Positions 7,108 through 44,712 are shown, counted from the stretch's first letter. The stretch is 44,712 nt of DNA from Oscillospiraceae bacterium (GCA_031255955.1 JAIRRO010000117.1:1-44712); one strand, 5' to 3'. Program-made: numbers and translations. Notes: generated by a model not told the origin, from the sequence alone.

Positions 7108-7118
7108 CTTCATATTAA

Positions 7119-18028: not shown

Positions 18029-18062
18029 GCGTCATCAGACGATGAATTTATGAGGTGTATCT

Positions 18063-18779: not shown

Positions 18780-18815
18780 ATAAATCACATTAGCAAAGGA
18801 ACGTGACAAGCACAT

Positions 18816-19574
18816 ATGATTACGAAGCGCATAATACCGTGCCTTGACGTGCGTGCCGGAAGAGTGGTCAAGGGCGTTAATTTTAAGGCTCTCGGCGACG
18901 TCGCCTCTCCCGTTGAGCTTGCGCGGGAATATTCCGACGGCGGCGCGGACGAGCTTGTCTTCTATGATATCACCGCCTCGCACGAGGATCGCGGGATTTT
19001 CACGGATATTCTCACGGAAGCCGCGAAAAACGTGTTTATCCCCCTCACAGTCGGCGGCGGGATTTCAAGTCTTGACGACTTTGACCGCGTCTTAAAATGC
19101 GGCGCGGACAAGGTAAGCGTCAACTCCGGCGCGGTGAAAAACCCTGAATTGATTCGCGACGCCGCGCGTGTGTACGGGAATCAATGCGTCGTCCTGTCTG
19201 TCGATGTCAAGCGCGTCGGCGGGGCGTTTCACGTGTTTCTAAACGGCGGGCGGATTGATACGGGTCTTGACGCGCTTGAATGGATACGGTGCGGTGAGGA
19301 CGGCGGCGCGGGTGAGCTTGTTATCAACTCTATGGATACGGACGGCGTAAAAGGCGGCTTTGATTTAGAGCTGCTTGCCGCCGTGTGTGAGGTCACGGGG
19401 CTGCCTGTTATTGCCTCCGGCGGCGCGGGCAGCGCTAAGGATTTTGTCACGCTGTTTCGATCACTGCCGCGCGTAGACGCAGGACTTGCCGCCTCAATAT
19501 TCCACTTTGGCGAGATATCGGTGCGCGAGTTAAAGAGCGTTCTGGCGGAAAACGATATAACAGTTAGACTGTAA
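18816..19574 (+). CDS. hisF: Imidazole glycerol phosphate synthase cyclase subunit HisF
   Basis: Contains KRIIPCLDV, ADELVFYDITAS, VGGGI and ASGGAG. Confidence 0.92.
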   Translation: MITKRIIPCLDVRAGRVVKGVNFKALGDVASPVELAREYSDGGADELVFYDITASHEDRGIFTDILTEAAKNVFIPLTVGGGISSLDDFDRVLKCGADKVSVNSGAVKNPELIRDAARVYGNQCVVLSVDVKRVGGAFHVFLNGGRIDTGLDALEWIRCGEDGGAGELVINSMDTDGVKGGFDLELLAAVCEVTGLPVIASGGAGSAKDFVTLFRSLPRVDAGLAASIFHFGEISVRELKSVLAENDITVRL

Positions 19575-24668: not shown

Positions 24669-24861
24669 GAGCAACGAGCTTTTATGGCGGTGCGGAAGGT
24701 GCGACGAGGCGCTTGAGAAGAAAAAAACCGTGTTTTCATATCTCGGCAGGTCGTTCACGCACGAGGTTGATGTATGCCCGAAATGCGGCGCGGTGTTGAT
24801 TCCCCGCGAGCTGGCGGAGGGGCGTATGGCGGAGGTTGAGGAGCAGCTGGAGGATAAATAA
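24661..24861 (+). CDS. 66-aa four-cysteine zinc-ribbon/rubredoxin-like protein (DVU_1557-family-like, from memory)
   Basis: Contains CGRC ... 31 residues ... CPKC with an acidic C-terminus. The start overlaps the upstream stop by 8 nt, and its stop overlaps the radical SAM start by 1 nt (TAATG). Confidence 0.6.
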   Translation: MSESNELLWRCGRCDEALEKKKTVFSYLGRSFTHEVDVCPKCGAVLIPRELAEGRMAEVEEQLEDK

Positions 24862-26168: not shown

Positions 26169-27628
26169 CACGACGCGACTTAGCCGCCGCCTCGCGTCAC
26201 CCCGGCGGACTGCCCCTGACGCAGCGCGCGGTACGGTTATCCGGGCTGCCACCCGGAGCGCGAATTCTTGATATTGGCTGCGGGGACGGCGCCAGCGTTC
26301 GCTTGCTGCGGCAGCTGGGTTTTGACGCCGTTGGAATAGACGAGCGCGCCGAAGGTCTCCCCTATGCAAGCGGTGAATTTGACTGCGTTCTGATGGAATG
26401 TGTGCTGTCCGTGCTGGACGACCCCGAAGCGGCGCTGCGCGAAGCGCGTCGCGTGCTGACGCCGCGCGGCACATTCATCCTCAGCGATGTCTGCGCCGCG
26501 GACGCCGAAGAAGAACTGCGCCGATTGCTTGAAGCATCAGGCTTTTCCGTAAAAATTGAGGAGGATCACACGGCGGCGCTTGTCACCTACGCGGCGGAGC
26601 GCGGCTTCGCCGCGGGGCGCGCTGCCGGATATGCGCTGTTCATCGGGGAGACCATTGACCCTCTTGCGCAATGGCTTGCGCGAAAAATCGGCAGCAGCAC
26701 ACCGCTTGAAGCATTTCAAACAGAGCAATTGCGAGAAACGCTTCACTTAGCCGCCGCCCACTCGCGTTTTTACAGGCAGAGCCTGGGGCATCAAGGCTTC
26801 TCCGGCGACACGGCGCGGCAAATTCTTGCAAGGCTGCCGTTTTCGTATCCCGAGCAGCTGCGCGCCGACCCCTTGGCGTTTCTCTGCGTCCCGCCGTCAG
26901 AGGCTTCCCGCGTCGTCACACTCGGCACCTCCGGCACGACCGGCGCTCCGAAGCGCATATATTTTTCCGCCGACGAGCTGGAGGACACCGTGGATTTCTT
27001 TGACTATGGGATGCGAAATATCGCGCAGCCTAACGGGCGCGCAATGATTTTTATGCGCGGCGCGGGCGTCCCCGACGGCGTGTGCGATACCTTGACGCGC
27101 GGCTTATCCCGCTTTGGCTGCGAGGGCATATCCTTCGGTGAAATCACCGGTGACGCCGACGACGCGCGGCGCGCGCTGCTTGAATCGAAAGCCGATTGCG
27201 CCGTGGGCATAGCCTCGCAGATGATGAAAATCGCAGCACTAGGCGGGGAGCAGCCGAGGCTCAAAACCGTGCTGCTCAGCGCGGATAACATCCCCGCCCA
27301 AACTATTCGCGCGCTTGAGGACGCTTGGGGCTGCGAGGTGTTCTCGCACTTCGGAATGACAGAAACCTGCTTCGGCGGCGCCGTTGACTGCCGCTGCCAC
27401 TCCGGTATGCACATCCGTGAGCCCGATATGATTTTTGAAATCATCGACCCCGTCACCGGAGCGCAGCTGCCGGACGGAGAGCGCGGCGAAATCGTCCTGA
27501 CCACGCTGACACGCCGCTGTATGCCGCTTATCCGTTATCGCACCGGCGATATTTCGCGCATCCTCACAGGTGAATGTCCCTGCGGCTGCACGCTGAAAAG
27601 ACTTGACCACGTAGAGGGACACGCGTGA
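26165..27628 (+). CDS. Fusion protein: class I SAM methyltransferase (N) + PaaK/coenzyme F390-synthetase-like adenylate-forming enzyme lacking the C-terminal subdomain (C)
   Basis: The methyltransferase part has motif I ILDIGCGDGAS and LTPRGTFILSD. The ligase part has TSGTTGAPKRIYFS, FGMTE and YRTGD. The ORF ends about 28 aa after YRTGD. It overlaps the radical SAM gene by ATGA. Confidence 0.8.
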   Translation: MTRRDLAAASRHPGGLPLTQRAVRLSGLPPGARILDIGCGDGASVRLLRQLGFDAVGIDERAEGLPYASGEFDCVLMECVLSVLDDPEAALREARRVLTPRGTFILSDVCAADAEEELRRLLEASGFSVKIEEDHTAALVTYAAERGFAAGRAAGYALFIGETIDPLAQWLARKIGSSTPLEAFQTEQLRETLHLAAAHSRFYRQSLGHQGFSGDTARQILARLPFSYPEQLRADPLAFLCVPPSEASRVVTLGTSGTTGAPKRIYFSADELEDTVDFFDYGMRNIAQPNGRAMIFMRGAGVPDGVCDTLTRGLSRFGCEGISFGEITGDADDARRALLESKADCAVGIASQMMKIAALGGEQPRLKTVLLSADNIPAQTIRALEDAWGCEVFSHFGMTETCFGGAVDCRCHSGMHIREPDMIFEIIDPVTGAQLPDGERGEIVLTTLTRRCMPLIRYRTGDISRILTGECPCGCTLKRLDHVEGHA

Positions 27629-28808: not shown

Positions 28809-28884
28809 GGGCTCGTAGCTTAGCTGGGAAAGCGCCGCGTTCGCAACGCGGAGACCGAGGGTTCGAATCCCTTCGGGTCCACCA
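28809..28884 (+). tRNA. tRNA-Ala (anticodon CGC), CCA encoded
   Basis: 76-nt cloverleaf folded by hand. The acceptor stem GGGCTCG/CGGGTCC carries the Ala identity pair G3:U70. The anticodon stem is ccgcg/cgcgg with loop TTCGCAA, and the T-arm is gaggg-TTCGAAT-ccctt. Confidence 0.9.
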
Positions 28885-30645: not shown

Positions 30646-33621
30646 ATGAGCAAGGCTCCGACGATTATGGTGTGGGGGCAGTTCGTCAGCATCACGCACG
30701 AATGGATAACCCCTGAGGGCATTGCCTCCGGAGAGCTGGAAGCGCGCGTTACCACGGGGGCATCCGCTGATTTTGCGGACTGGCTTCCGGCGGAGGTTTC
30801 CGAAACCCCGTTTGGTCCCACGGCGAGCTATCGCGGGGAGCTCCCCCCGTTTTTCAGGCTGCGCGCCGCGGTGTCGCTTCGGGGAGAGGTCAGCGAAACG
30901 GCGGAATTTGTCTCGTCGCCGCGCGCGCCGGAGCCTGATTATTCCCCCGGCGCTTATCTGCCGGAGGAGCTGCCGCGTGAAATTGCCCTTTCTGCCCCGG
31001 CGGGCGAGATTTTTTTCACAGCCGCCGCCGTTCCGTATTCCGCGGGCAGTTTCGCACCGGACAGCTCCGCCGTGTCCGCCGTCCCGGAACCGCGCGCCTT
31101 TGAAAACGCGTACACGGGTAAAATCGCGCTTTCGGATATTTCATCGGGCGCCATAAGCGGAGCAAATGCCGTTGTGATTAAAGCCATCGCAGCCGCCCGC
31201 GACGAGGGTGGCGAGGTGTTCTCCAGCCCCGTCACAACGCTGTTTTACGCGCCGGACGCCGCCGTGCAAAAGCTGACCCCTGACAATATCGACGCCGTAC
31301 TTGCCCAGATGACCGCGGAGGAAAAGCTCCGTCTTACGGGCGGCATCGGCGGCGACCCGACCGTTTTAATTAACGATGGTCCTGCCGGGGCGACATACGG
31401 CATCCCGCGGCTGGGTATCCCGCCGCTTGTGCTGGCGGACGGTCCCGCCGGTGTGCGTATGCGCAAAAACGCCACGGTCTGGCTCTCCCCCACCGGTATG
31501 GCGTCCACGTGGGATTTAGACCTTGTTCGCGAGGTTGGAGAGCGCGTCGCCGCGGAGGCTACGCACTACGCCGTGGATGTAATTTTGGCGCCGGGGCTGA
31601 ATATTCAGCGCAACCCGCTCGGCGGACGAAATTTTGAGTATTATTCCGAGGACCCGCTGATAACGGGCGCTGTCGGCGCGGCATATATAAACGGCGTACA
31701 GTCCGGCGGCGTCGGCACCTCGCCGAAGCATTTCGCGGGGAACGATCAGGAAAATTTCCGCGGACGCGGCAACGTCATCGCGTCGGAGCGCGCGCTGCGC
31801 GAGATTTTTCTGCGCGGCTTTGAATTGGTATCAAAGGCGCAGCCGTGGACATATATGTGTGCCTACAACGCCGTAAACGGCGCGCTTGCCAATGAAAACA
31901 AATGGCTGATGACCGACACCCTGCGCAAGCTGTGGGGTTGGGACGGTCTTATGATGAGCGACTGGGGCGCGGACTATGACCCCGCCAAATCGCTGGAAGC
32001 GCAAATGGATCTCGGCGAGCCGACGCGCGATATCAACGCGGCGCTCGCGTGGCTGCGCGGCGAAACGGACGCGCAAGCCAACGATACAGAGCTGCGCCGC
32101 CGTATGGCGCTGCTGGATCGCTCGGCGCGCAATATGCTGACTCTGATACTAAAAACCCACGCGTATAACGGCGCTTACGGCAGGCTTATGCCGGACGGCT
32201 CTTATGCCGCGTCCGGCGGCGTGCCGGGACTCACGCGCGAGATCATAAACAACCGCTCGCGGGAGTTCGGCGGATCGGAAATTCAGCGCGAATCCGCCGC
32301 CGTGAATCGCCGTCTTGCCACAGAGGGTATGGTTCTGCTTAAAAACGACGGCGGCGCGCTGCCGATTAAAACCCGCGGGGCAAAGCTCTCTCTTGTGACC
32401 AGTGAGGTGGCGTGGGACGAGCTGGACAACCCCGGCTGGTACGGAAACACGGCTTCGCTCGGGGACATCGTAACGCAGGGGCGCGGCTCGGCGCAGGTGA
32501 AATTCAATGGCGACGGCGGGAGCGCTTGGGCGCCGACCCTGCGCGAAGGCTTGACAAACGGCGGCTTTGAAATCGTCGCGTGGAAGCGCGACGGCGAAAT
32601 TGCCGGCACCTCTGATATGCCGCACGGGGAAAGCTTGGGTGCTGACGAGGGCGCGCGCGTACCGGCGCGGCGAGAGGATGTTGAGGCGGCGGCGCGGGCG
32701 GCGCTTGACGCCGGGGCAGAGGCGTTTGTATTCGTCGTAACGCGCGTTTCCGGCGAGGGGCAGGACGTTGTGCCGGAGGAATTTGCCCTTTGCGCGCGCG
32801 AGGAATCCGTGTTCGCGCCATACGCCGATATGTTCCGGGCGGCGGGACGCCGTGTCATCGTGCTGTTAAACTGCGGCTCCGCCGTCGATACCACGCTACT
32901 GCGCGAAAAGGCGGATGCGATTCTTGACGTCTTTAACCCCGGCACAGAAGGCGCAAACGCCATCGCGGATATTCTTTCCGGCAGGGTAAGCCCCTCCGGC
33001 AAGCTGACACAGACCTTCCCGTTAACATATGACGACAGCCCTTCCATCGCCATGGCGCGCGCGGAGCATCGCGGCAAAACCTTCGGCACCGACCCCGTTT
33101 ATTACGACGAGGGCGTATATGTCGGCTATCGCTATTTCGATACCTTCGGCAAGCGCGACCGCGCGGCGTATCCCTTCGGGCACGGGCTGTCATATACGAC
33201 GTTTGAGTTCAAAAATCTTTGTGTCTCGACTGAAAATGCAGCGTCCGACGGCGTCACGGCGACGCTTGAAATCACAAACACCGGAGACCTCCCGGGGCGC
33301 GAAACCGCACAGCTGTATATTGGCGCCGATACATATAAATCCGAGGGACGCCCGATAAAGGAGCTGCGCGCCTTCGCAAAAACAAAGCTGCTGGCGCCGG
33401 GCGAGACGCAAACCGTGACGCTTTATGTACCGCCGCGCGAGCTGTGCTTTTATGACGACGGCAATCCGGATAACGCTCTGACAGAGCGCGACATATCCTA
33501 TACGGACGGCACACACTGGCGAGTTGCGCCGGGCACGCGCTTTAATATAACCGTCGGAAACACCTCTGACCCCGAAACGCTCGCGGTGTCCGGCTTAAGC
33601 GCTGAAATAACCCTGAAATAG
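30646..33621 (+). CDS. Glycoside hydrolase family 3 (beta-glucosidase-like) with ~210-aa N-terminal extension and C-terminal Fn3-like domain; no signal peptide
   Basis: GH3 motifs are present (ADGPAGVR, KHFAGNDQE, nucleophile region GLMMSDWGA) with a C-terminal FGHGLSYTTF and beta-sandwich. RBS GGGAGG lies upstream of the ATG. Confidence 0.88.
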   Translation: MSKAPTIMVWGQFVSITHEWITPEGIASGELEARVTTGASADFADWLPAEVSETPFGPTASYRGELPPFFRLRAAVSLRGEVSETAEFVSSPRAPEPDYSPGAYLPEELPREIALSAPAGEIFFTAAAVPYSAGSFAPDSSAVSAVPEPRAFENAYTGKIALSDISSGAISGANAVVIKAIAAARDEGGEVFSSPVTTLFYAPDAAVQKLTPDNIDAVLAQMTAEEKLRLTGGIGGDPTVLINDGPAGATYGIPRLGIPPLVLADGPAGVRMRKNATVWLSPTGMASTWDLDLVREVGERVAAEATHYAVDVILAPGLNIQRNPLGGRNFEYYSEDPLITGAVGAAYINGVQSGGVGTSPKHFAGNDQENFRGRGNVIASERALREIFLRGFELVSKAQPWTYMCAYNAVNGALANENKWLMTDTLRKLWGWDGLMMSDWGADYDPAKSLEAQMDLGEPTRDINAALAWLRGETDAQANDTELRRRMALLDRSARNMLTLILKTHAYNGAYGRLMPDGSYAASGGVPGLTREIINNRSREFGGSEIQRESAAVNRRLATEGMVLLKNDGGALPIKTRGAKLSLVTSEVAWDELDNPGWYGNTASLGDIVTQGRGSAQVKFNGDGGSAWAPTLREGLTNGGFEIVAWKRDGEIAGTSDMPHGESLGADEGARVPARREDVEAAARAALDAGAEAFVFVVTRVSGEGQDVVPEEFALCAREESVFAPYADMFRAAGRRVIVLLNCGSAVDTTLLREKADAILDVFNPGTEGANAIADILSGRVSPSGKLTQTFPLTYDDSPSIAMARAEHRGKTFGTDPVYYDEGVYVGYRYFDTFGKRDRAAYPFGHGLSYTTFEFKNLCVSTENAASDGVTATLEITNTGDLPGRETAQLYIGADTYKSEGRPIKELRAFAKTKLLAPGETQTVTLYVPPRELCFYDDGNPDNALTERDISYTDGTHWRVAPGTRFNITVGNTSDPETLAVSGLSAEITLK

Positions 33622-33651
33622 CGAAAATATATTCCCACGGACATCAAACCT

Positions 33652-33690
33652 GCGGGGCGGCGAAATTCGTCGCCCCGCTTCGTCTTTCTT
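33652..33690 (+). terminator. Rho-independent terminator after the GH3 gene
   Basis: 11-bp stem gcggggcggcg/cgtcgccccgc with loop aaatt, followed by TTCGTCTTTCTT. Confidence 0.65.
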
Positions 33691-33727
33691 CGACATTCAC
33701 ATTGTAGAATTTTTCACAAAACAACTC

Positions 33728-33756
33728 TTGCCAAGCGTTATGTTTCAGTATATAAT
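33728..33756 (+). promoter_or_regulatory. Candidate sigma-A promoter for the GH63-like gene pair
   Basis: TTGCCA (33728-33733), 17-nt spacer, TATAAT (33751-33756). AAAGGAG lies 9 nt before ATG 33816. Confidence 0.5.
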
Positions 33757-33815
33757 GGCTATATAAATCAGCAGCGAATAAACAAGAAGCCAAAATATGA
33801 AAGGAGCCTCACGAA

Positions 33816-35423
33816 ATGCCTAACAACCCATCAACAAGCGCCTCCCCGCCGAAGCTCCCGTTCCTGCCCTTCGGCAGACGGGACTCGCGGCATATGCTCA
33901 TCGCGCAGGGGGATACTCTGTGGCTTGCCCTTGCCTCTGAGGGCGCGCCGTCGATGATTCCCACCGCCCCGCGTCCCGCCGGACTGTTTGAGCTTACGGT
34001 TCTCTCCTCCGGCAATCCCGTCCCGTATACATACACAGCCGACATATCCGTGCTGGAGCTTAAAGCCTCCGGCGGAGTGGCGCGCATCACACACGATACT
34101 CAGGTGGGCGCTTTAAGAATTGAAGCCGAGGGCATCTCCCTTCGCTTTGACGGCAAAACCTCCTCCGGAGTGTCCTCTCTTAACACGCCGGACGGTCCTG
34201 TGGTAAGTATCGGCGGCGGGCGTTATCTCTTCTCCGCGCGTCGCGGAACGATCACCTTTGACGACACGTGGGTGCTAAACGCCTTCGGCTCTGTCGTGCC
34301 TGTGGTGGACATTGCGCCCGCCGGGGGCATTATCGAGCTTGTCGTCTACGAGCTGCCGGGCGACACCATTATACCCGCCCCGACAGGCAGCTTTGACAGC
34401 CGCGCGGCGGAGAATGCCGCCGAATTCTCGGCGTTCGACAGCTCCATCGTCTCCGCGCCGCCGCAGTATTCTAAGCTGCGTGACGAGGCTGTGTATTCGC
34501 TGTGGTTGAATTCCAAAAAGCTCGCCGACGGCAATCACTGTATCACGCCGAACCGCATCACCTCTTCAATGGCGGAGGCGCACCGCCAAGCCTTGGCATC
34601 GTTCGCGTTCCGCGATTTTGACTCTGCCTTCGAGCTTTTGATGTCGCTGCCGGAGTCCTCTCCTCCGCTGCGCGGCTTCGCCGTCACACGAATGATTGAT
34701 GACGGCTTGCTCGACGGCGTGGAGCTTGACATGCTGCGCAAGCTGTATCACGAGCTGGAGGCGACAGCCAAATGGTGGCGCGACAACCGCACTATGCCGG
34801 GCGCCGCTCTCAGCTATTACGCCTACCGGTTTGAATCGGGGCATCCGAACCCCTCCACCTTCACCGTCGGCGCGCCTGTCATAGCCCCGGATTTGAACGC
34901 TTATCTTGTGTTGCTGTACGAGGCGCTGAGTCAGCTGGCGGCAAATCTCGGCGACAACGCGGCGTCCGATAAATTCGCGCTGGGCGCGAAGGAGCGTCTT
35001 GACGCGATGCTCTCCGACCTTTGGGACGGCGAGCGCTTTTTCGCCGTTAACGTCTATTCCGGAGAGCGCGAGAGCGCGGAGTCTCAGACGACATACGCGC
35101 CGCTTATTCAAAACGAAATCCCGCTTATCCTCGGGCGGCGGCTGCCGGGCGATGTGTTCGATAAGCTCGCGCGGAGCTTCGGCGAAAAGCTGAACAATCC
35201 GCCGGAGGGCGCGGGACGCAGCTCGGATCAAACGCTGCAATATGCCGCCGTGCTGCTGGGTCTTGTCTACGCGGAGCCGCTTGAGGTTCTCGGTAAATAC
35301 ACCTCGCTTGTCGCGGGCGCGTTCAAGCCGGAATGGATGCAATACGCCTCTGATCCAATCACCGGGGCGGTAATGCTCGCCGCCGTATCCAAAGCCTTCG
35401 GCATGGGTACGCGGATAAATTAA
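33816..35423 (+). CDS. Putative cytoplasmic (alpha/alpha)6-barrel glycosidase, GH63/MGH1-like
   Basis: Pattern typical of GH63/GH37/GDE_C barrels: YRFESGHPNPS (acid/ESG motif), DLNAYLVLLYEALSQLA, LWDGERFF. No signal peptide. Assignment is by motif pattern only. Confidence 0.45.
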   Translation: MPNNPSTSASPPKLPFLPFGRRDSRHMLIAQGDTLWLALASEGAPSMIPTAPRPAGLFELTVLSSGNPVPYTYTADISVLELKASGGVARITHDTQVGALRIEAEGISLRFDGKTSSGVSSLNTPDGPVVSIGGGRYLFSARRGTITFDDTWVLNAFGSVVPVVDIAPAGGIIELVVYELPGDTIIPAPTGSFDSRAAENAAEFSAFDSSIVSAPPQYSKLRDEAVYSLWLNSKKLADGNHCITPNRITSSMAEAHRQALASFAFRDFDSAFELLMSLPESSPPLRGFAVTRMIDDGLLDGVELDMLRKLYHELEATAKWWRDNRTMPGAALSYYAYRFESGHPNPSTFTVGAPVIAPDLNAYLVLLYEALSQLAANLGDNAASDKFALGAKERLDAMLSDLWDGERFFAVNVYSGERESAESQTTYAPLIQNEIPLILGRRLPGDVFDKLARSFGEKLNNPPEGAGRSSDQTLQYAAVLLGLVYAEPLEVLGKYTSLVAGAFKPEWMQYASDPITGAVMLAAVSKAFGMGTRIN

Positions 35424-35442
35424 TTGAAGGGAGCTATTTAGA

Positions 35443-37281
35443 ATGTTCGGAACTTACGAAAAATTTACCTTAGTGCGCGCGCCATACGCGCGGCGCGGCT
35501 CCGTAATATATCTGTATGAGGATTTTGAAAAGCACGGACTCCTGCGTCTCGGCATGCAAAAGTCCGGCGATATGATCTCCGGTACGGATTTCCTGTTTGA
35601 TATCGCCCTGACGAAAAACGGCGCGAGCGTTCCTTATACATACTTCGCCGACGCGGGCAGCCTGCGTCTTACAAGCGGGGACGCCTACGTCGAATTTGCG
35701 ATTACGGACAGACAGCACGTGCGCATCAGAGGCAACGGCGCGGGGGCGCGCCTCACGCTTATTTCCACAAATCCGCCGATACCGGAGCGCACCCCGGGAT
35801 TCGCCCGCGCGCTGCGCGGCATTTATTCTATGCCAAAAGGCGGCGCGGAAGCCGATTTCGGCAAATACGGCAGGGTGTTTATCAATGCGCTGGCGGGCGC
35901 GTTCCATTATGACGCGCCGTACAACGAAAACGGCTATTACAATTCGTTGACATACAACTTTTTGCCGGATGTCCAAACGGGTCGCTTTGACGCCGCCTTG
36001 CACGAATATGACGACGGAGAAATTTATCCCTATGGTCACTATGAGCCCTTCGACCAGCTTGTATCGGACAATCGCACGGACTTCGAGAGCTTTAAGCGCG
36101 GCTATCGCAGCGTCGCCAAGGGCTATGAGGAAACGGCGAATTACGCCATGTGGACCGTTTGGAGTCACCGCGCCGCGCCGCGTTCGTTTATCAAATCCCC
36201 GATAATATTCTTCCATCATCAATGGGCTGTTGTGGCGGCAAGCTGGCAGCAAAGCTATAACGCTATGCCGATGCAAAATAATCTAAAAGAGGCGTGGCGG
36301 CTGATTTGCACAATGTTTGAATATCAGGACGAGCGCACGGGTCGTCTGCCCGGAATGCTGGCGTATACCGGCGTAGCGGCGGGGCTTCAGCCGCCGTTCC
36401 AAGGCTTTGCGCTGGAATTTTTGCTTCGAAACGTCGGGGAGGATATAATCCCGCAGGAGGACTGCGCCAGAATGTTCCCCAAGTTCGCCAAATGGGTGAA
36501 TTATTGGACAACATACCGCTCCGCGGATCTGGGCGCCGCCGCCCCGCGTCCGCAGCCCGCCGTGCAGCCGTCAAGCGACGTCACGGAAATTCAAAGCCCG
36601 CATGAAGCCGGCTGGGACGACGCCTCCAACTTCAAGGACGGCTTCCCCGCCTCTGACCCGAACACAATGGCGTTTCTTGTACTGTTGATGGAATGCACGG
36701 CGAGACTCGCCCGCGGCGCGGGTCTGCGCAAGGAAGCCACCGACTGGATGGACCGCGCGCAGAAGCTTACAAAAATAATTATCGACGATTATTGGGACGG
36801 TGAAAAATTCGTCACCAAGGTAAAGGGCAAGCCTGTTGACGCGATGAGCCTTGCCTGCTATCAGCCTATCATCCTCGGCAAGCGCCTGCCCCGCAAGATA
36901 ATTAACAAGGTCGCCGAGCGGCTTATGGCTCCCGGCGAGTGGCTGACTGAAATCGGACTTGCCTCTGAAAGCATGCGCTCTCCGCTTGTGACGTTCGGCA
37001 TCAGCTTTGTATGCGGGCGCGTTGTCGCGCCGCAGAATATGATCATCTCTGTCGGTTTACAAGCCGCGGGCAAGCAGAAGGAAGCGGAGGAAATCGCGCG
37101 GCGCTACTGCGATCAAGTCAAAAAAGAGGGCATCATCCTCGGCTTCGCCCCGTATGACCACTTCCCGCTTACCGGTGAGCCGGCACCCGACCAACCGCGC
37201 CCGTTCGCGACAGACGGCTGGCCGTGGACCTCGTGGTGCGCCAACAGCTTTATGACGATGGCATCAAGCGTTCTGGCGTAA
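35443..37281 (+). CDS. Putative cytoplasmic (alpha/alpha)6-barrel glycosidase, GH63/MGH1-like (paralog of the preceding gene)
   Basis: Contains SPHEAGWDDASNF (cf. ESGWD/ESGMDNSP motifs), FLVLLMECTARLA and YWDGEKFV. No signal peptide. Confidence 0.5.
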   Translation: MFGTYEKFTLVRAPYARRGSVIYLYEDFEKHGLLRLGMQKSGDMISGTDFLFDIALTKNGASVPYTYFADAGSLRLTSGDAYVEFAITDRQHVRIRGNGAGARLTLISTNPPIPERTPGFARALRGIYSMPKGGAEADFGKYGRVFINALAGAFHYDAPYNENGYYNSLTYNFLPDVQTGRFDAALHEYDDGEIYPYGHYEPFDQLVSDNRTDFESFKRGYRSVAKGYEETANYAMWTVWSHRAAPRSFIKSPIIFFHHQWAVVAASWQQSYNAMPMQNNLKEAWRLICTMFEYQDERTGRLPGMLAYTGVAAGLQPPFQGFALEFLLRNVGEDIIPQEDCARMFPKFAKWVNYWTTYRSADLGAAAPRPQPAVQPSSDVTEIQSPHEAGWDDASNFKDGFPASDPNTMAFLVLLMECTARLARGAGLRKEATDWMDRAQKLTKIIIDDYWDGEKFVTKVKGKPVDAMSLACYQPIILGKRLPRKIINKVAERLMAPGEWLTEIGLASESMRSPLVTFGISFVCGRVVAPQNMIISVGLQAAGKQKEAEEIARRYCDQVKKEGIILGFAPYDHFPLTGEPAPDQPRPFATDGWPWTSWCANSFMTMASSVLA

Positions 37282-37344
37282 ATAATCCCACAGACGCGAG
37301 GAATAATATACTCCGAATATTTCTTTTTTCGGAGTTGGTGCTTT

Positions 37345-39324
37345 TTGAAGGCTGTTATCCTCGCGGGGGGTGAGGGGACGCGTCTGCGGACGGTTACGGG
37401 GAATATGCCGAAGCCGATGGTTCCGATTCTCGGGGAGCCTGTGCTGGTGCACATTCTTCGGCTGCTGCGGAAAAACGGCGTCACGGATGCGTGTCTCGCG
37501 CTGCGGTATATGCCGCGCGTGGTTATTGATTATTTCGGCGATGAGTTTGAAGGCGTATCGCTGACGCACCGCGTGGAGGGTGAGAGGCGCGGCACGGCGG
37601 GCTGCGTTCGCGACTGCGCGGATTTTATCGGCGGGGACGGCGATTTCCTTGTCGTCTCCGGCGATTGCATATGCGATTTCGATTTTCGGGAGCTTATCCG
37701 GTTCCACCGGAGCCGAAAAAGCGAGGTGACAATCGCGCTGCACGCCGTGCCGGAGCCTACGGAATACGGTCTTGTCGTATGCAGTCCGGACGGTAAAATC
37801 GAAAAATTTACGGAAAAGCCCGCGTGGGAGGGCGTTATGACGGATATGGTATCCACCGGCATATATGTCATAACCGCCTCCGCGCTGCGCGAAATTCCCG
37901 AGAGCGGGGAATATGATTTCGGCTGCGATTTATTCCCCGCGCTGCTTGAATCCGGGCGGGCATTATATGCCGTCGCCCCGCGCGGCTATTGGCGCGACAT
38001 CGGCTCCCCCGATTCGTACTACGCTTGCGTGCGTGATGCGGAGGACGGACGCGTGAGGCTGGAAGCCTCGCACAGCGCCGTTTCGCACCGCATCACTGCA
38101 TCCGAGACGTCAAACGAAGGTGCACAGCACGCGACGCCACTGTTCACGGCGCGCGGAGAAATATCCGGCGGGCGTGACGCGCGCCTTGACGCGTCGGTGT
38201 GTTTAAGGCTGGGGCTTGCGGCGGGAGGCTTCGGACTTGTCGGGATATGCTGCGCGGGCGGCGCCGCCGCGCGCGTGGTTTCGCGCCTTATCGCCGACGG
38301 AGTGAACGCCGCGGGCGGGGATGTTATCACTCACGACGCCGAAACGCTCGCCGAGGCGGCGTTTGCCGCGCGGACGCTTGATATCGCGTTGTCCGCCGTT
38401 GTGACGCAGCGCGGCGGGGATATCAAAATCAGCTTTATCGATAAAACAGGCGCCGCGATCGGGCGCGCCGTTGAACGTCGGCTTTTATCCCCACCTCCGG
38501 ACGGCGTTGGCGCGCTGCGCTTTTCAGGGCAAGCGCACTGCGGGGAATCCCGCAGCGTCACCGGCGTCGTGGAGCTTTATATTTCGCACCTCGCGCGTAT
38601 CGCCCGCGTGGAAGCTCCGGACGACGCGGCGCCGCTGCGCGTCGCTGTCGGCGGGGGCGGCTCAGCGGCTCGCGCCCTGCGCGAGGCACTGACGCGCGCG
38701 GGCGGATATGAGCTTGCGGAGGAGGCGCAGGGGTGCGTAATTTTTGAGCCTTCGCCCGACGGAAGGGCATGCTCCGCGCGCGGTGAGCGCGGTGCCCCGC
38801 CGGATTTCGGAGAGCTTTTGGCAATGGCAGCCGCCATACATTTTGAAAGCTCGCGGGGCGCGCTCACGCTGCCGCCGGACGCGCCGGAGGCGATAAACGC
38901 GCTTGCCGCGAAATATAAAGGCGAGCTTATTCGCTCTGACATAAACACCGCCGAATGGAGCCGCGACGGTCTTGTACTCGCGGCGGAGCTGTGCGCGTTT
39001 ATGCGGCGGCGCGGGGTCAGCTTTGATGAGATCAAAGCCTCCATCCCCCGCTTTCGTATATCAGAGCTTGAAATTCCGCTGCGCTCTGACCGCGCCGCCG
39101 TGATGCGCGAGCTGTCCTCAAACGCGGAGGCGGGCGATATGCTGGATTCCGGTCTTGTTTTGCGCGGCGCGGACGGATTCGCGCTCATATCGCCGCGCCG
39201 CGCAACCGACGCCCTGCATATACGCGCGGAAACCCCCGGCGAAGCCAACGCGCGGCAACTGCTGGCGGAGTTGACTCGCCGCATCCGTGAAAGCGAGGAC
39301 CGGGCAATTATAAATAAATTTTAA
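37345..39324 (+). CDS. Sugar-1-phosphate nucleotidyltransferase fused to a degenerate phosphohexomutase (PGM/PMM)-like region
   Basis: The N-terminus MKAVILAGGEGTRLRTVTGNMPKPMVPILG is the NTP-transferase signature. The C-terminal 400 aa follow PMM topology, but AVVTQRGGDIKISF replaces the TASHNP phosphoserine loop. TTG start. Confidence 0.7.
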   Translation: MKAVILAGGEGTRLRTVTGNMPKPMVPILGEPVLVHILRLLRKNGVTDACLALRYMPRVVIDYFGDEFEGVSLTHRVEGERRGTAGCVRDCADFIGGDGDFLVVSGDCICDFDFRELIRFHRSRKSEVTIALHAVPEPTEYGLVVCSPDGKIEKFTEKPAWEGVMTDMVSTGIYVITASALREIPESGEYDFGCDLFPALLESGRALYAVAPRGYWRDIGSPDSYYACVRDAEDGRVRLEASHSAVSHRITASETSNEGAQHATPLFTARGEISGGRDARLDASVCLRLGLAAGGFGLVGICCAGGAAARVVSRLIADGVNAAGGDVITHDAETLAEAAFAARTLDIALSAVVTQRGGDIKISFIDKTGAAIGRAVERRLLSPPPDGVGALRFSGQAHCGESRSVTGVVELYISHLARIARVEAPDDAAPLRVAVGGGGSAARALREALTRAGGYELAEEAQGCVIFEPSPDGRACSARGERGAPPDFGELLAMAAAIHFESSRGALTLPPDAPEAINALAAKYKGELIRSDINTAEWSRDGLVLAAELCAFMRRRGVSFDEIKASIPRFRISELEIPLRSDRAAVMRELSSNAEAGDMLDSGLVLRGADGFALISPRRATDALHIRAETPGEANARQLLAELTRRIRESEDRAIINKF

Positions 39325-39343: not shown

Positions 39344-39372
39344 TTGACATCCTGAAAACCCTGTGTTATACT
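39344..39372 (+). promoter_or_regulatory. Strong sigma-A promoter driving the riboswitch leader
   Basis: TTGACA (39344-39349), 17-nt spacer ending TGT, TATACT (39367-39372). Confidence 0.55.
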
Positions 39373-39379
39373 GCGTTTC

Positions 39380-39616
39380 AAGAAGAAGGAAGTCGGCTCC
39401 GTCGGCTCGCGCTTCGTTAAGTGCCGGTGTTGCTGTGTGCGGCGCCCGCACGTAATTAAATGCTGTCGCGTAAGCGATAGGGATTTGCGGTGAGATTCCG
39501 CAACTTTCGAGAAACCGTAATGCCTCAGCCCTCATTTGGGCACGGGGACAAGTCGGGTCGGGGGATGCAAACACGCTCGTTATCGGTTTGCATGTGCAGG
39601 TGCACTGATACTATAT
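39380..39616 (+). promoter_or_regulatory. Probable cobalamin (B12) riboswitch aptamer; exact boundaries uncertain
   Basis: ATAGGGA at 39477-39483. A hairpin ttgcgg-TGAGATT-ccgcaa at 39485-39503 resembles the GGTGAnAnTCC loop. ACCGTAATGCC is at 39514-39524. GCCTCAG-ccc...ggg-CACGGGGA at 39522-39548 resembles GCCACTG...GGGAAG. A B12-box-like AAGTCGGGTCGG starts at 39550. DUF4430 genes lie downstream. Confidence 0.55.
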
Positions 39617-39653
39617 CACCCCCGTAGTCTCGAACTACGGGGGTGTTTTCTGT
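39617..39653 (+). terminator. Rho-independent terminator (riboswitch expression platform)
   Basis: 12-bp stem cacccccgtagt/actacgggggtg with loop ctcga, followed by TTTTCTGT. Confidence 0.75.
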
Positions 39654-39792
39654 ACAGAAAAAAATCCCCGCTGCGCCACGACAGCATAGAAAGGAGGGTC
39701 GCCATTTGCTATGTGTTCGGGCAAATGACCGACAAAAGAGGACGAACGCGGGGTAATGTAATTGGCGCCCACGCGCCGGAAAGGTAATTATT

Positions 39793-40293
39793 ATGAAAAG
39801 CATAAACAAGCGTTTACTGAGCGTGGTATTGACGCTCGCAATGGTGGCAGCCCTGTTCACAGGGTTCGGCGGAGCCGCAACAGCGGTGGAGGACAGCGTA
39901 ACTGTTACTGTTTCGCTGGTGATCTACGGCGAAGAGTTCTTTTTTTATTCTGCCACTTTATCCGATGGCAGTACCATGTACGATCTGGTCAATGAAGTGT
40001 TTGATGATCTTGAACCGACATGGGTAACAGTGCCTGATTTCCAGTATGAAAACGTGACTTACGAAGCCCTTGAATCTCTTTACGGACTCGGAACGGTTTT
40101 CGTCGATTATGTGTATGAAGACGGAAGCTGGTACTATATTTATGACGGATGGATTTTCACGGTCAATGAAATCAGACCAAGTGAGATGCGCCCCGGCGTA
40201 GCCTTTCCTGTACAACTGTATATGGATCAAGTTGAGCTACAGGACGGCGATGAGATAGTGTTGAACTATGACACTTGGTACGAGGAAATGTAG
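39793..40293 (+). CDS. Secreted DUF4430 (transcobalamin beta-domain-like) protein
   Basis: Signal peptide MKSINKRLLSVVLTLAMVAALFTGFGGAATA. The DUF4430 pattern is VTVTVSLV..., DGWIFTVNE, LQDGDEIVLNYD. Confidence 0.7.
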   Translation: MKSINKRLLSVVLTLAMVAALFTGFGGAATAVEDSVTVTVSLVIYGEEFFFYSATLSDGSTMYDLVNEVFDDLEPTWVTVPDFQYENVTYEALESLYGLGTVFVDYVYEDGSWYYIYDGWIFTVNEIRPSEMRPGVAFPVQLYMDQVELQDGDEIVLNYDTWYEEM

Positions 40294-40320
40294 CAACCGA
40301 CGTAATAACCTGCGGTATAT

Positions 40321-40353
40321 AAAGCGGGGCGGTTCACCCGCCTCGCTTTATTA
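40321..40353 (+). terminator. Possible (leaky) terminator between the two DUF4430 genes
   Basis: 12-bp stem aaagcggggcgg/ccgcctcgcttt (one G:U) with loop ttcac, followed by an A/T-rich tail. Confidence 0.45.
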
Positions 40354-40378
40354 TAAATATCAAAATGGAGGTTGTATT

Positions 40379-43300
40379 TTGAAACTATCCAAATCTAACC
40401 CAAAAATGTTCGCATTGCTTTTTGCTATAATTCTGTGTCTGTCACAGCTGCTTGCGATAAATGTACACGTTATTGCCGCGGATGATAATACCGTGCCGAC
40501 GGCAGGCGATGAATATGGCTATATCACGAGTGTTTTTCTCGGTCACCAAAATAGCTCAACCCCGGTGCCGGGATTTGAGTTTGTGCCTGGAAAGACAACA
40601 TACGATGTTGTAATTTCTGATGCATCTGTGAGCGGATACCTTTCGTTTACTTGCATTGACCCAATACCCGAAAACTTTTATTACGATTGTTATCGTGACG
40701 GCAAGGCTCTTGCAAACAGCACCACAAACAAAGCAATATCAAATACTACCACAAGCAACTCCATGTTAACTACAAGCCTAAGAGAATTTCCCATTGGCGA
40801 AACACATGTACTCAGTCTTGTTATCGGTCAAAAGTATGATGGTCAATATGTTAATTCCGCTGTATATAATTTCAACATAACACGCAGTCCATCTGTAAAA
40901 TCAGGTTCATCAGCCTTTAGTATATCTATTCAAAATGAGCAGGGTACAAAAAAGCTTCCGCTGTCTCCGGCAACATCACCGTACACATACGAATATTCTA
41001 CCGTGACCTCCGAGGATAAAATATACATCACGGCTCCGATCAATTCTCCCGGAGTGGATTTTTATCTGCGGGATGAGCTTATCTCCCCCGCCCCGACAAA
41101 TAGGGAAATAACACTTTCCGAATATACAGCTTCTGGCTCTGATATTGCTGTCATTCCTTTTTCTCTAAGATATGAAAATGAAAATCCCGCGCTATCATCG
41201 ACAACCAACTACACCTTGTATGTCAGCAAAATTGATTATGATCCAAAAATCTCCGCGCAACCTTCTCCGTCGTCAACTGTTTCCAAAAACAATTCCTCTT
41301 TTTCTCTCTCCGTCGCGGTAAATACGCCGGAGAAAGGCACACTTAGTTATCAGTGGACATACGGTCCGATGAAGCTCCCCATTCAAGGCGCGACGGAGAG
41401 CACGTATACACCGCCGACAGCATACGCGGGAAGCCGCAATTATTATTGTGTGATTACCAATACTGTGGATGGAATCCAGTTCACTACTACAAGCGCGGGA
41501 GCTACGGTGACGGTTCTCGCTGAGTCGGTATTTCCTCCGGAAATAGTTTCCGGTCCGCCTGACATCGTGACTCTGCCTATTGGTTCTGAGTATGCGGTTC
41601 GCACGACTATAGCGACGCTTGAAAGTGATGCGCTCTTATCTGTCAAGTGGTATAAGAACTCGACACCGTCCACAACGGGAGGTGTTTTTATCGGAGACGC
41701 CTCGCAATCTGCGACAAGCATTTCCAGCACCGCAGACTATTACCAGCGCAAAAGCGTAACTCACAGCTTTACTCTTCCGGCGCAGTACGAAGCTGGTGCT
41801 AATTATTGGTATTTCGAAGCTTCAAGTGTTATTGGAAATAATATAGCTACTGTGACAAGCGATATCATCACCGTGATAATTGAACCGGTTTCAATCGGTT
41901 CACTCCGCGGAACAGGTACTCCCGAGGAGCCGTTTTTCATCGAATCATATGCGGATTTGCTGACAATTCAACGTGCAGTAAACAGCGGCACTACACTTGA
42001 AGGCGTCCATTTGAAGCTAACGAATGATATTTCGCTTGCGTCAGATTGGGTGCCAATAGGCACTGTTAAAAACTCATCGTCGGTTTTCATACCCACGAGC
42101 GCAAGAGATGTCGAAAAAGCCGAATACGGTCATGGCGCAAATATCGACCCGTTTATGGCAATTCTTGACGGCGACGGGCACACGATTACTGTCGCGAACA
42201 ACGGATACCCCTTGCTTGGATTCGTCAGAGAAGCCACGGTTAAGAACTTGAATATATACGGTGAACGCATTAACGGTTCAGGACTGGTATTAAACAGTTT
42301 TGTGGTCTATGGCATTGACGGTACGTACAGCACGGGCGTTCCCGACACTATAACGCTTGATAATGTCAAGCTGCTCTCCGGCTCGTCCACATTACGCAGT
42401 GGATTGATTGAGGGCAGCGGATCAGGCTATAATGGTATCACAATTACGAATTGCATCGTGGAAACCGGTGTGACTGTCGGTTATGACGCTTCGCAAAGCG
42501 ATATTGCTTCTTTTGTCGGCGGTATGAACGGAACCATCCGTAATTGCCTGAGTTATGCCGATGTGAAGGGTGTGAATACCGTTGGCGGAATCATCGCTAA
42601 GAAAATGCAATCCGTGGGATTATGCAGTGTGGATAACTGTGTGTTCCTCGGTACGATAAACGCAAGCGGGCACTCGGTAGGCGGTATAGTTGGCGCGGGA
42701 TATATTGCCGCATCCGCTCCAAATACGCCCACTGTGGCAGTAAAGAATTGTTATGTCGCGGCTGACATCAAGGGTTCGGCGGGCGTAGGCGGCATTATTG
42801 GCAACGAGGGCGGGGTTCGCGGCGCGCTGAACACCAGTTACGTGACTGATAACTTCTTTTACGGTACAATTACATCCGTGGACAATGCTGCGGCTGACGA
42901 TTATTTTCTTGCTTTGGCGAATGTTAAATCAAGCGAAACTTTCGGAGCGATATTCGGCTTCCTGAGAAGTGTGGATGTTGACCGTCAATATATAAGCAAC
43001 AACTACTATCATTTGATTGTTGCTACTGAACTGGATGGCATAGGTAAAATCAGCGATCCGACCTCATTCGACGAATCTGCTGCCTGCATCCAAAAAACCC
43101 CCGATGAATTTGCCGTCGGTACGGTTCTTGCACAGCTCAACAACTCTGAAACAAGCTATAAGAACTGGGTGCAAGGGGAACTGTTCCCTGAGCTTGACTT
43201 TGCTAAAGCCATCATCACAAGCCTCGAGATTTCCGGCAACTATAAAACGCAGTACTACATCGGCGATGTGCTTGATCTGTCGGGAATTGTTATCACGGCA

Positions 43301-44712
43301 AGATGGTCAGACGGCAAAGCAAGTGAAATTTCGCTTTCTGACTGCAATGTCAGCGGTTACGACTCCGCTACACGCGGGATTCAATCTATCACACTGACAT
43401 ATGGCGCGGTTAACGCCACGCTTGATGTAACTGTCCTGAAGCTTCCCGGCGGCGGTTCGGGTGCGTCGGATTTGATTACCGTTACCCTGACCATTAAGGG
43501 CGATACGCTGCACAACAGCGTTGAGGACGGCAGGGTACACGGGCTGAAAAATGGTGGGCTATCGGACTGGGTGTCAAAATCCTTTGCGGTTGATTTGAAC
43601 GCGACAGTAGCCGATGTTATTCAAAGAGCCATCACCGAGGCGGGTATTTCTTGGAGCAATCCGAGCGGAAACTATGTCGAATCTATGACCCGCAACGGTG
43701 TTACAATCGGCGAATTTACAAATGGTCCCCACTCCGGTTGGATGTATACAATCAACGGCAAGCTGTCAGATTTAGGTATATCCGAGCAATTCCTTGAGAG
43801 CGGCGACAGGATAATACTGTTCTATTCGGACGATTCAACCACAGAGGACGGCTGGGAAAAGATTTCCGGAACCGGCGACATTCCCACAGGCTCCGGAAAC
43901 TCGGCGTCTGACGGGGACAACAATTCCAGCGACGCCGACAGCGAAACACCCCTCGGCAGTCTCGGCAAAGCATCCTACGACGTTGTGGCAAGCGAAACCC
44001 TTGACACCCCGGCTATCACGCCCGACGACAACGGCACAGCCACGGTGGCAATCGAAGCGGAGAAAGTCACCGCAGCGGTGGACAAAGCGAAAAAAGCTGT
44101 GGAAACGGCGAAAGCCGACGGCAAAACAAACGCCGTCGCGGAAATCGTAATCCCCGTGAAAATCGACGAGGCAAACACGGGCGACGCCGCAATCGCGGTG
44201 ACAACCGTGGAGGCAACACTCCCCGCCGCGGCAATCAAAACAATCGCCGAGGCGAAGGACGTCATCCTCACGGTGGAAAGCGACATCTCAACCGTCACCC
44301 TCGACACCGCGACAATCGCAACAATCGCCGCTAACACCCAACCCAATGAAGCCGTGACAATCACGGCGACGATCATCCCCATCGCTGTAGGGGGCGGCGT
44401 CCCCGACGCCCCTTCCGACGTCCTCGGCGTCCCGCCCTCCGTCACCGCCAACATCCCACCCGCCGTCCGTGACATCATCGACCTCGGCATCACCGTCGGC
44501 AACACGGCGATAACAAACCTCGGCGGCACAGCAACCATCTCCATACCGTACACCCCGACAGCGGAAATCGCAACAGCGGACTACGATCTGCTCACCGTCT
44601 ACCGCATATCGGACAACGGCAGCATAACAGAGGTACACGGAGCGAGCTACGACGAAGGGACAATGACATTCACGACAACACAAGCGGACAAATTCTTTGT
44701 ATCCGAATGGAT
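40379..44712 (+). CDS. Large secreted/cell-surface multidomain protein (at least 1444 aa, 3' end beyond the window): signal peptide, Ig-like repeats, GLUG-motif beta-helix, Big_3-like Ig domain, DUF4430 domain, Ala/Thr/Ile-rich C-terminal module
   Basis: Hand translation from TTG 40379 (GGAGG 7 nt upstream) is open to the window end. It starts MKLSKSNPKMFALLFAIILCLSQLLAINVHVIAADD. Other landmarks are LSYQWTYGP...YYCVITN; GTGTPEEPFFIESYADLLTIQ followed by VGGIIAKK, VGGIVGAG and VGGIIGNEGG; GYDSATRGIQSITLTYGAVNATLDVTV; and HSGWMYTINGK...ESGDRIILFYSDD. It is not in the ORF track because no stop lies in the window. Confidence 0.85.
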   Translation, partial: MKLSKSNPKMFALLFAIILCLSQLLAINVHVIAADDNTVPTAGDEYGYITSVFLGHQNSSTPVPGFEFVPGKTTYDVVISDASVSGYLSFTCIDPIPENFYYDCYRDGKALANSTTNKAISNTTTSNSMLTTSLREFPIGETHVLSLVIGQKYDGQYVNSAVYNFNITRSPSVKSGSSAFSISIQNEQGTKKLPLSPATSPYTYEYSTVTSEDKIYITAPINSPGVDFYLRDELISPAPTNREITLSEYTASGSDIAVIPFSLRYENENPALSSTTNYTLYVSKIDYDPKISAQPSPSSTVSKNNSSFSLSVAVNTPEKGTLSYQWTYGPMKLPIQGATESTYTPPTAYAGSRNYYCVITNTVDGIQFTTTSAGATVTVLAESVFPPEIVSGPPDIVTLPIGSEYAVRTTIATLESDALLSVKWYKNSTPSTTGGVFIGDASQSATSISSTADYYQRKSVTHSFTLPAQYEAGANYWYFEASSVIGNNIATVTSDIITVIIEPVSIGSLRGTGTPEEPFFIESYADLLTIQRAVNSGTTLEGVHLKLTNDISLASDWVPIGTVKNSSSVFIPTSARDVEKAEYGHGANIDPFMAILDGDGHTITVANNGYPLLGFVREATVKNLNIYGERINGSGLVLNSFVVYGIDGTYSTGVPDTITLDNVKLLSGSSTLRSGLIEGSGSGYNGITITNCIVETGVTVGYDASQSDIASFVGGMNGTIRNCLSYADVKGVNTVGGIIAKKMQSVGLCSVDNCVFLGTINASGHSVGGIVGAGYIAASAPNTPTVAVKNCYVAADIKGSAGVGGIIGNEGGVRGALNTSYVTDNFFYGTITSVDNAAADDYFLALANVKSSETFGAIFGFLRSVDVDRQYISNNYYHLIVATELDGIGKISDPTSFDESAACIQKTPDEFAVGTVLAQLNNSETSYKNWVQGELFPELDFAKAIITSLEISGNYKTQYYIGDVLDLSGIVITARWSDGKASEISLSDCNVSGYDSATRGIQSITLTYGAVNATLDVTVLKLPGGGSGASDLITVTLTIKGDTLHNSVEDGRVHGLKNGGLSDWVSKSFAVDLNATVADVIQRAITEAGISWSNPSGNYVESMTRNGVTIGEFTNGPHSGWMYTINGKLSDLGISEQFLESGDRIILFYSDDSTTEDGWEKISGTGDIPTGSGNSASDGDNNSSDADSETPLGSLGKASYDVVASETLDTPAITPDDNGTATVAIEAEKVTAAVDKAKKAVETAKADGKTNAVAEIVIPVKIDEANTGDAAIAVTTVEATLPAAAIKTIAEAKDVILTVESDISTVTLDTATIATIAANTQPNEAVTITATIIPIAVGGGVPDAPSDVLGVPPSVTANIPPAVRDIIDLGITVGNTAITNLGGTATISIPYTPTAEIATADYDLLTVYRISDNGSITEVHGASYDEGTMTFTTTQADKFFVSEW

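Follow-up and report, generated by a model that had tools for sequence, protein, structure and literature searches.

A candidate corrinoid-capture operon encoding two transcobalamin-beta-like proteins in uncultured Clostridia

Competition for corrinoids shapes anaerobic gut communities, and to our knowledge the extracellular capture of corrinoids has been worked out for Bacteroidota only. In Bacteroides thetaiotaomicron, surface and extracellular B12 binders encoded behind cobalamin riboswitches form a relay (BtuJ, BtuH1/BtuH2, BtuK and BtuG-BtuB; PMC13616437, PMC6143338), and a 2026 review describes secreted or wall-associated cobamide binders in Firmicutes as "entirely uncharacterized" (PMC13616437). 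The domain DUF4430 is the C-terminal domain of the vertebrate TCN proteins, which are B12 carriers (PMC4350170). Here we describe a two-gene operon at positions 39,344 to 44,712 of a contig from Oscillospiraceae bacterium (GCA_031255955.1 JAIRRO010000117.1:1-44712; the whole 44.7-kb contig, 44,712 nucleotides, is referred to as the window), which encodes a small secreted protein and a giant surface protein. The finding of two exported proteins with a B12-carrier fold, together with cobalamin riboswitches upstream of the orthologous genes, makes corrinoid capture the natural reading. We consider it somewhat better than an even call that the operon is a Gram-positive corrinoid-capture module, plausible and uncharacterised, whose proteins would bind corrinoids; it stands as a well-supported candidate rather than as a demonstrated system.

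Among Gram-positive bacteria, the nearest precedent is the Lactobacillus sakei operon lsa1836-1840 (bioRxiv 10.1101/864751), in which an energy-coupling factor (ECF) transporter is encoded together with a secreted alpha-like protein (Lsa1840) and a secreted transcobalamin-beta-like protein (Lsa1839), the latter proposed to scavenge a tetrapyrrole, heme, for import. The window operon has neither an ECF gene nor an alpha partner; a giant surface protein bears its second beta domain, and its orthologues are riboswitch-controlled. The Bacteroides relay resembles the window operon family in that its binders stand behind cobalamin riboswitches (in our case those of the orthologues), and the occurrence of BtuH1 as a domain alone and of BtuH2 behind Ig-like domains parallels the small and the giant protein. 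However, the relay folds (jellyroll, BtuH domain, beta-propeller) are unrelated to the beta-grasp of the window proteins, in which no Pfam or NCBIfam match to a beta-propeller, a BtuH domain or a DUF4465 jellyroll was found. Also, the Bacteroides binders are outer-membrane lipoproteins feeding a TonB transporter, whereas the window comes from a sporeformer of Gram-positive type, the orthologues of its giant protein carry SLH or CW_binding_2 domains, and the operon contains no transporter gene. BtuG, BtuH and BtuJ therefore serve as a functional analogy only.

The two coding sequences, and the domains assigned in the second of them, are as follows.

39793..40293, plus strand: small secreted protein, 166 aa (open reading frame, ORF; Sec signal without a lipobox cysteine; predicted divergent DUF4430/transcobalamin-beta-like beta-grasp domain)
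40379..44712, plus strand: giant surface protein, TTG start, signal peptide, 1444 aa visible (ORF; 3' end cut by the contig end)
43244..43435, plus strand: Big_3 Ig-like domain of the giant protein, aa 956-1019 (Pfam, 57.9 bits; match to PDB 2l7y)
43463..43864, plus strand: DUF4430/transcobalamin-beta-like domain of the giant protein, aa 1029-1162 (Pfam PF14478 core at aa 1076-1149, plus the span of the family hidden Markov model, HMM)

The DUF4430 domain of the giant protein was recognised by Pfam (PF14478, 37.7 bits against a cut-off of 23.8), and contains the motifs HSGWMYTINGK (aa 1118) and ESGDRIILFYSDD (aa 1140). The family HMM revealed no further copy in the 1444 visible aa, leaving one copy only. 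The first ~950 aa, serine/threonine-rich and then glycine-rich, gave no significant Pfam or PDB match. The signal peptide, like that of the small protein, is of the Sec type and lacks a lipobox cysteine. About 25 homologues of the giant protein were collected (P0002-P0026, 1426-2522 aa), and share the Big_3 + DUF4430 architecture except for P0006, for which Big_3 and SLH are on record; the DUF4430 domain is thus conserved in 24 of them (P0002-P0005 and P0007-P0026). Wall anchors occur at the C-terminus in orthologues, with SLH domains in P0002 and in locus L011, and CW_binding_2 in P0004, and by comparison with these the window protein would be anchored to the wall through a region lying past the contig end.

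For the small protein, the mature form of roughly 135 aa consists of a lone divergent beta-like domain. Pfam gave no match to it even at E <= 1, and the gathering cut-off of PF14478 was not reached. At the family level, 9 of 11 members matched PF14478 weakly (best E = 2e-4), and alignment of the small-protein family profile with the DUF4430 domains of the large proteins using hhalign gave a probability of 96% (E = 4.4e-9). The orthologue in locus L003 is named "DUF4430 domain-containing protein" by NCBI. An AlphaFold2 model built from a 9-sequence alignment had a pLDDT of 80.4 and a pTM of 0.68, compared with a pLDDT of 34.7 from the single sequence. The top 19 Foldseek matches of this model were the beta domains of transcobalamin, haptocorrin and intrinsic factor, and the Ruminococcus gnavus DUF4430 structure 3u7z. 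Target-normalised TM scores were 0.68-0.69 for transcobalamin (5no0, 5np4) and 0.78 for 3u7z, and the probability was 1.00 for these and for haptocorrin 4kki and intrinsic factor 2pmv. Transcobalamin was not found in sequence searches of the PDB with the small protein, its family profile or the DUF4430-domain profile, and came to light by fold comparison alone.

The presence of a transcobalamin-beta-like (DUF4430) module in the small protein is therefore supported by profile comparison and by modelling, and in the giant protein by Pfam, so that both window proteins are read as built on the transcobalamin-beta (DUF4430, beta-grasp) fold. A first-pass annotation of this DNA had described a 166-aa signal-peptide protein with the motifs DGWIFTVNE and LQDGDEIVLNY, followed by a surface protein of at least 1444 aa with a DUF4430 domain of its own. 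These features were confirmed, with the two motifs at aa 118 and aa 149 and the large ORF running from the TTG at 40379 to the contig end, and every motif that it quoted was found where it had been placed. Its assignment of the small protein to DUF4430 failed in Pfam but stood with the family profile and the predicted fold.

The fold common to both window proteins is that of the beta domain of mammalian transcobalamin, haptocorrin and intrinsic factor (5no0, 5np4, 2bb5, 4kki, 2pmv), and all of these proteins are extracellular. The window operon differs from the mammalian carriers in lacking an alpha6/alpha6 barrel domain, in a sequence identity of only 11-16%, in the location of one beta copy in a giant protein of >1444 aa, and in that corrinoid binding is here a proposal. 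A different function has to be weighed at this point, namely that the DUF4430 modules bind a non-corrinoid ligand (heme, another tetrapyrrole or a non-tetrapyrrole), with the giant protein being mainly of the S-layer or adhesin type and the B12 link being incidental for the window copy. We consider this unlikely. The beta-grasp is a generic fold, to which ubiquitin-like domains also match, more weakly; 3u7z bears the deposition label "putative metal binding protein"; the L. sakei proteins are proposed to be heme scavengers; and most of the giant protein consists of Ig-like and glycine-rich repeats with no assigned function. The best structural matches are, however, specifically the B12-binding beta domains, and the regulatory and transporter evidence given below bears on the same question.

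Cobalamin riboswitches control B12 synthesis, B12 uptake or B12-independent isozymes (PMC11477304). Matches to the class I adenosylcobalamin (AdoCbl) riboswitch model RF00174, which has a gathering score of 31.5 bits, were found upstream of the orthologous operons in L001 (62.4 bits), L003 (50.4 bits), L011 (49.9 bits) and L002 (38.4 bits). These four close orthologous loci, in metagenome-assembled genomes labelled Eubacteriales Family XIII and Gracilibacteraceae, encode a signal-peptide protein of 168-204 aa immediately 5' of the giant gene with a long leader before it, and they have in common the order of promoter, aptamer, terminator, spacer and small gene. The giant proteins of L001, L002 and L003 are the closest homologues of the window protein, with 41-45% identity. 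In L013, a short contig starts inside the riboswitch, which scored 17.2 bits with Rfam and 28.7 bits with R1, a family-specific covariance model built from the four orthologous riboswitches. RF00174 thus exceeds the gathering threshold upstream of four orthologous operons, and a fifth riboswitch is truncated where its contig begins. At the level of the family, as judged by covariance models, the B12 link is real, and the operon was probably B12-regulated ancestrally. The presence of cobalamin riboswitches before five orthologous operons argues against a non-corrinoid ligand. The same alternative is favoured by the many giant homologues that lack a riboswitch and lie in mobile-element contexts.

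The gene pair is likewise a property of the family, with a small gene followed by a gene for a large Big_3-containing surface protein in all seven loci with downstream sequence (L001, L002, L003, L011, L014, L016 and L017). In L016 and L017, the small-family protein is paired with a 1976-aa Big_3 + SLH protein in which DUF4430 was not detected.

Further support for the B12 link comes from a distant relative, L007, in which the gene for a homologous giant Big_3 + DUF4430 protein is followed by a group of genes (16857-19201) for, in order, a 193-aa DUF4430 protein, a 54-aa ORF, a CbrT-like ECF S-component and a 303-aa protein without a Pfam match. The best solved relative of this S-component is 6fnp, the B12 transporter ECF-CbrT, and by sequence the group is a putative B12 uptake cassette. 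The occurrence of a CbrT-like S-component beside DUF4430 genes again speaks against a non-corrinoid ligand. It is the point of likeness with ECF-CbrT (PDB 6FNP, PMC5997447); the difference is that the S-component gene occurs neither in the window nor in the four close orthologous loci.

Several observations on the distant giant homologues are recorded here in their own right. In L007 (1-10000), the giant gene directly follows a prophage-like block (VapE, DNA polymerase A, sigma factor), and in L004 (3352-8091) and L005 (2892-7631) the giant Big_3 + DUF4430 gene adjoins tRNA genes and a phage-type integrase. These contexts recall the mobilisation of B12 uptake genes that has been reported for gut Bacteroides (PMC8759732). 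In L006, a second giant protein of 2210 aa (2601-9233) is encoded just upstream of the homologue, and combines DUF4430 with a match to a prenyltransferase-type alpha-alpha toroid that is below the Pfam cut-off (20.6 against 26.5 bits); it would thereby unite the two halves of a transcobalamin-like binder in a single surface protein.

At the window locus, the region between the promoter and the small gene contains the following features.

39344..39372, plus strand: sigma-70-type promoter, TTGACA-17-TATACT with TG extension (11/12 matches)
39379..39616, plus strand: structured leader RNA of ~240 nt (minimum free energy -118.6 kcal/mol, z = -3.9)
39463..39565, plus strand: cobalamin aptamer remnant (partial RF00174 match, RF01689 at 15.6 bits, P4 hairpin with R1)
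39617..39653, plus strand: intrinsic terminator of the leader (12-bp stem at 39617-39645 with 8 GC pairs, then a U tract)
39654..39792, plus strand: 5' UTR spacer of ~140 nt, with the ribosome-binding site GGAAAGG at 39778-39784 (sequence reading)

The near-consensus promoter, the structured leader and the strong terminator agree with the first-pass annotation. The promoter of L001 occupies the same relative position as that of the window, and the leader fills the slot that is taken by the cobalamin riboswitch in the orthologous operons. The terminator hairpin has a predicted energy of -22.9 kcal/mol, and the fold of the spacer is not unusual (z = -1.0).

The aptamer itself is a different matter. 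RF00174 gave no gathering-level match anywhere in the window, where the only Rfam match at gathering thresholds is a tRNA-Ala. With permissive filters, a 296-nt search yielded a partial local match to RF00174 at 39486-39557 (17.4 bits, E = 0.016, model positions 51-163), and in a 651-nt search the best model of the riboswitch clan was RF01689 (15.6 bits, E = 1.7). Model R1 recovered the P4 hairpin only (39486-39502, 4.4 bits). Alignment of the window leader with the orthologous leaders using MAFFT was uninformative.

The remnant keeps a P2-like hairpin, AGGGA, the P4/L4 hairpin UGCGGUGAGAUUCCGCA (39486-39502) and a P6-core-like motif, CCGUAA...AAGUCGG. The P4 hairpin with the L4 loop motif GGUGnnAAnnCC after GGGA(A) is present as AGGGAUUUGCGGUGAGAUUCCGCA (39479-39502). 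The pattern AGGGA-N5-GGTG-NNA-NN-CC occurs once in the window and in 0 of 100 shuffles, and the remnant motifs are beyond chance. The elements that close the four-way junction, namely the P3 closing helix and the core of the J6/3 "B12 box" (AGCCAGGAGACCUGCC), were not found in the window leader, which instead reads AAGUCGGG and then UCGGGGGAUGC, where neither a CCU nor a CCC strand is available for pairing with GGG. AGACC, the B12-box core, is missing, with the RF00174 alignment ending at model position 163 and R1 finding nothing there. Also absent is the peripheral extension of P6 (GCCACUG...GGGAAGGC) that is typical of class I; only ~30 nt separate CCGUAA from AAGUCGG, whereas the extension is present in 4/4 orthologues. 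The predicted fold of the leader puts P4 outside the junction. A second, upstream half-aptamer at 39420-39460 (GCCGGUG...GCCCGCACGUAA) was considered and rejected, as this stretch searched alone gave no cobalamin match.

The window leader is thus not a recognisable cobalamin riboswitch. It resembles class I AdoCbl riboswitches in the L4 loop motif, the P6-core-like motif and the downstream terminator, and differs from them in the score and in the missing elements. With the P3 closing strand, the core of the B12 box and the P6 extension all lost, the aptamer appears to be eroded in this genome, and B12 control of the window copy is doubtful or would be non-canonical. The first-pass annotation had placed the operon under a B12 riboswitch on the strength of core motifs in the leader. 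The L4 hairpin, AGGGA and a P6-core-like motif are indeed present, but by the refuting condition that the annotation itself had set, the lack of a significant RF00174 match, the regulatory claim fails for the window locus, while riboswitches as such were found in the four orthologous operons.

A remnant of this kind could still act as a switch. The 5' arm of the terminator, CCCCC (39620-39625), can alternatively pair with GGGGG (39560-39565) to form a predicted antiterminator, and these segments are paired in the folds predicted for transcripts ending at 39628 or 39633. In all, the folds predict three mutually exclusive pairings: a helix between 39505-39511 and 39559-39565, the antiterminator, and the terminator. 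Some switching function is therefore possible. On this basis, the leader might be a working cobalamin sensor of atypical architecture that represses the operon with B12, as the first-pass annotation had proposed; the ligand would stabilise the helix CUUUCGA/UCGGGGG (39505-39511 with 39559-39565), which would free CCCCC and allow the terminator to form. The position of the leader, its strong structure and the retention of a perfect L4 motif GGUGAGAUUCC and of CCGUAA...AAGUCGG are consistent with such a sensor. We nevertheless judge it improbable, given an RF00174 match that is only local and scores below the cut-off, a single hairpin recovered by R1, the loss of the P3 closing strand and the AGACC core, and the predicted displacement of P4 from the junction.

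Comparison across loci gave a series of leaders, from intact, through a variant without P4, to a P4-only relic and to none detectable, with the window copy toward the eroded end. The window leader may be a cobalamin riboswitch caught midway in natural erosion or re-wiring. The L016-type leader (6502-6747 in L016, and the same in L015 and L017) has the opposite pattern of loss to that of the window: it keeps the P6 extension and a B12-box-like CGCAAGUCAGAAGAUCUGU, and has lost the P4/L4 hairpin. The series is usable for the study of riboswitch decay.

The RF00174 and R1 results for the window leader weigh against corrinoid capture, and so do the findings gathered here. Among the orthologues, the leaders of L016 and L017 are weak riboswitch-like variants without P4/L4 (14.7 bits with R1), no riboswitch was detected in L012 with Rfam or R1, and the distant loci L004-L007 have no riboswitch and no upstream small gene. 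No ECF or ABC transporter for B12 was found within the window, as the first-pass annotation had remarked, nor did the window or loci L001-L003 and L011 contain an ECF S-component or module. Neither window protein matched an alpha-alpha toroid (prenyltransferase-like; PF00432 or PF01122), and no such alpha partner domain was found in the window or in the close orthologous loci; toroid matches were seen in the distant giant protein of L006 and, faintly, in P0009-P0011. A literature search found no characterised bacterial DUF4430 corrinoid binder, and the heme-uptake proposal for Lsa1839/1840 (bioRxiv 10.1101/864751) was the only functional proposal found for secreted transcobalamin-like proteins in Gram-positive bacteria. 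Lastly, the small protein is an orphan at the sequence level. A word-indexed protein search with it returned only itself, and an exhaustive HMMER search returned 7 relatives, that is, 8 representatives among 1.8 billion. As for the coverage of the searches, a metagenome-contig scan with the small-protein family profile found nothing, and the pattern used for genome contigs needs Y where the window sequence has V, so that the window's own lineage may have been missed.

With these points taken into account, we propose the following for the corrinoid-capture operon. It would be a conserved two-gene extracellular module of uncultured Clostridia, consisting of a small secreted beta-like protein and a giant protein whose single canonical DUF4430 domain follows a Big_3 Ig domain and is displayed on an extended stalk of Ig-like and glycine-rich repeats. 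The proteins would capture corrinoids (vitamin B12 and its analogues) outside the cell, and the captured corrinoid would be handed to a transporter encoded elsewhere. In the ancestral operon, cobalamin would switch off expression via a transcription-terminating riboswitch; in the window copy, the aptamer would have eroded with the terminator/antiterminator pair still in place. The relative amounts of the two proteins may be set by a further feature, which lies between the genes.

40319..40351, plus strand: intercistronic stem-loop, 14 bp, directly after the small gene (-34.7 kcal/mol, z = -4.9)

A strong hairpin right after the stop codon of the small gene was found in 6 of 7 loci: the window, L001 (~4358-4389), L002 (~9886-9914), L003 (~6359-6389), L014 (~832-871) and L016 (~7511-7550), the exception being L011. 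This hairpin is conserved in position but not in sequence, and may act as a partial terminator or stabilise the mRNA, and so set how much small protein is made relative to the giant one. Because a strong hairpin follows the small gene in 6/7 loci, its presence suggests that the small protein is made in excess, and the hairpin would probably make it the more abundant of the two, which would fit a soluble binder with a rarer cell-bound partner.

In a more specific and tentative version, to which we give rather less than even weight, the abundant secreted beta-only protein would capture corrinoids and either pass them to, or form a sandwich with, the beta domain of the wall-anchored giant protein, as a Gram-positive counterpart of the Bacteroides relay. 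If this were true, bacteria would offer a functioning precedent for the beta domain of the mammalian B12 carriers, one that works without an alpha domain. The mammalian carriers enclose B12 between two domains, and the separate domains of intrinsic factor or transcobalamin come together around the ligand. This mammalian arrangement, the absence of an alpha-like domain from the operon and the strict pairing of the small and giant genes also suit another mechanism, compatible with a role in B12 binding, in which the small protein is not a diffusible "corrinophore" but a stoichiometric partner of the giant protein, for example docking onto it so that the two beta domains make up one binding site, or aiding its folding or anchoring. 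We regard a stoichiometric partner as possible but fairly unlikely: the hairpin conserved between the two genes points to unequal expression, no anchor or docking module can be recognised in the small protein, and the partner giant in L016 and L017 has no detectable DUF4430.

Within the proposed corrinoid-capture reading, the operon family provides a concrete, expressible candidate pair, with independent regulatory evidence from riboswitches in five orthologous loci, and places the transcobalamin beta fold in a bacterial context.

The host is a spore-forming Clostridia-type, Gram-positive-type bacterium, as called from the presence of SpoVAD, an Etf/acyl-CoA dehydrogenase cluster, his genes, priA and cdaA in the window, which has a GC content of 57%. 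A collection of 15 billion proteins held no relative at 90% protein identity. In the L001 organism, a URO-D family gene lies several genes 3' of the operon (16361-17362). The URO-D family includes partners of corrinoid-dependent methyltransferases, and the gene may hint at corrinoid-dependent metabolism in that organism.

Three further observations concern the remainder of the window. Directly upstream of the operon, at 30646-39324, lies a glycoside-hydrolase cluster with a GH3 enzyme and two MGH1-like hydrolases, which has no obvious connection to B12; also encoded there is a nucleotidyltransferase of 659 aa, whose long C-terminal extension gave no Pfam match. A single tRNA-Ala(CGC) gene is located at 28809-28884, between gap and pyrG. 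At 24861-27628, the gene for a radical-SAM protein that has a zinc ribbon of the HMPTM type precedes one for a fused methyltransferase/AMP-binding protein, an unusual pairing.

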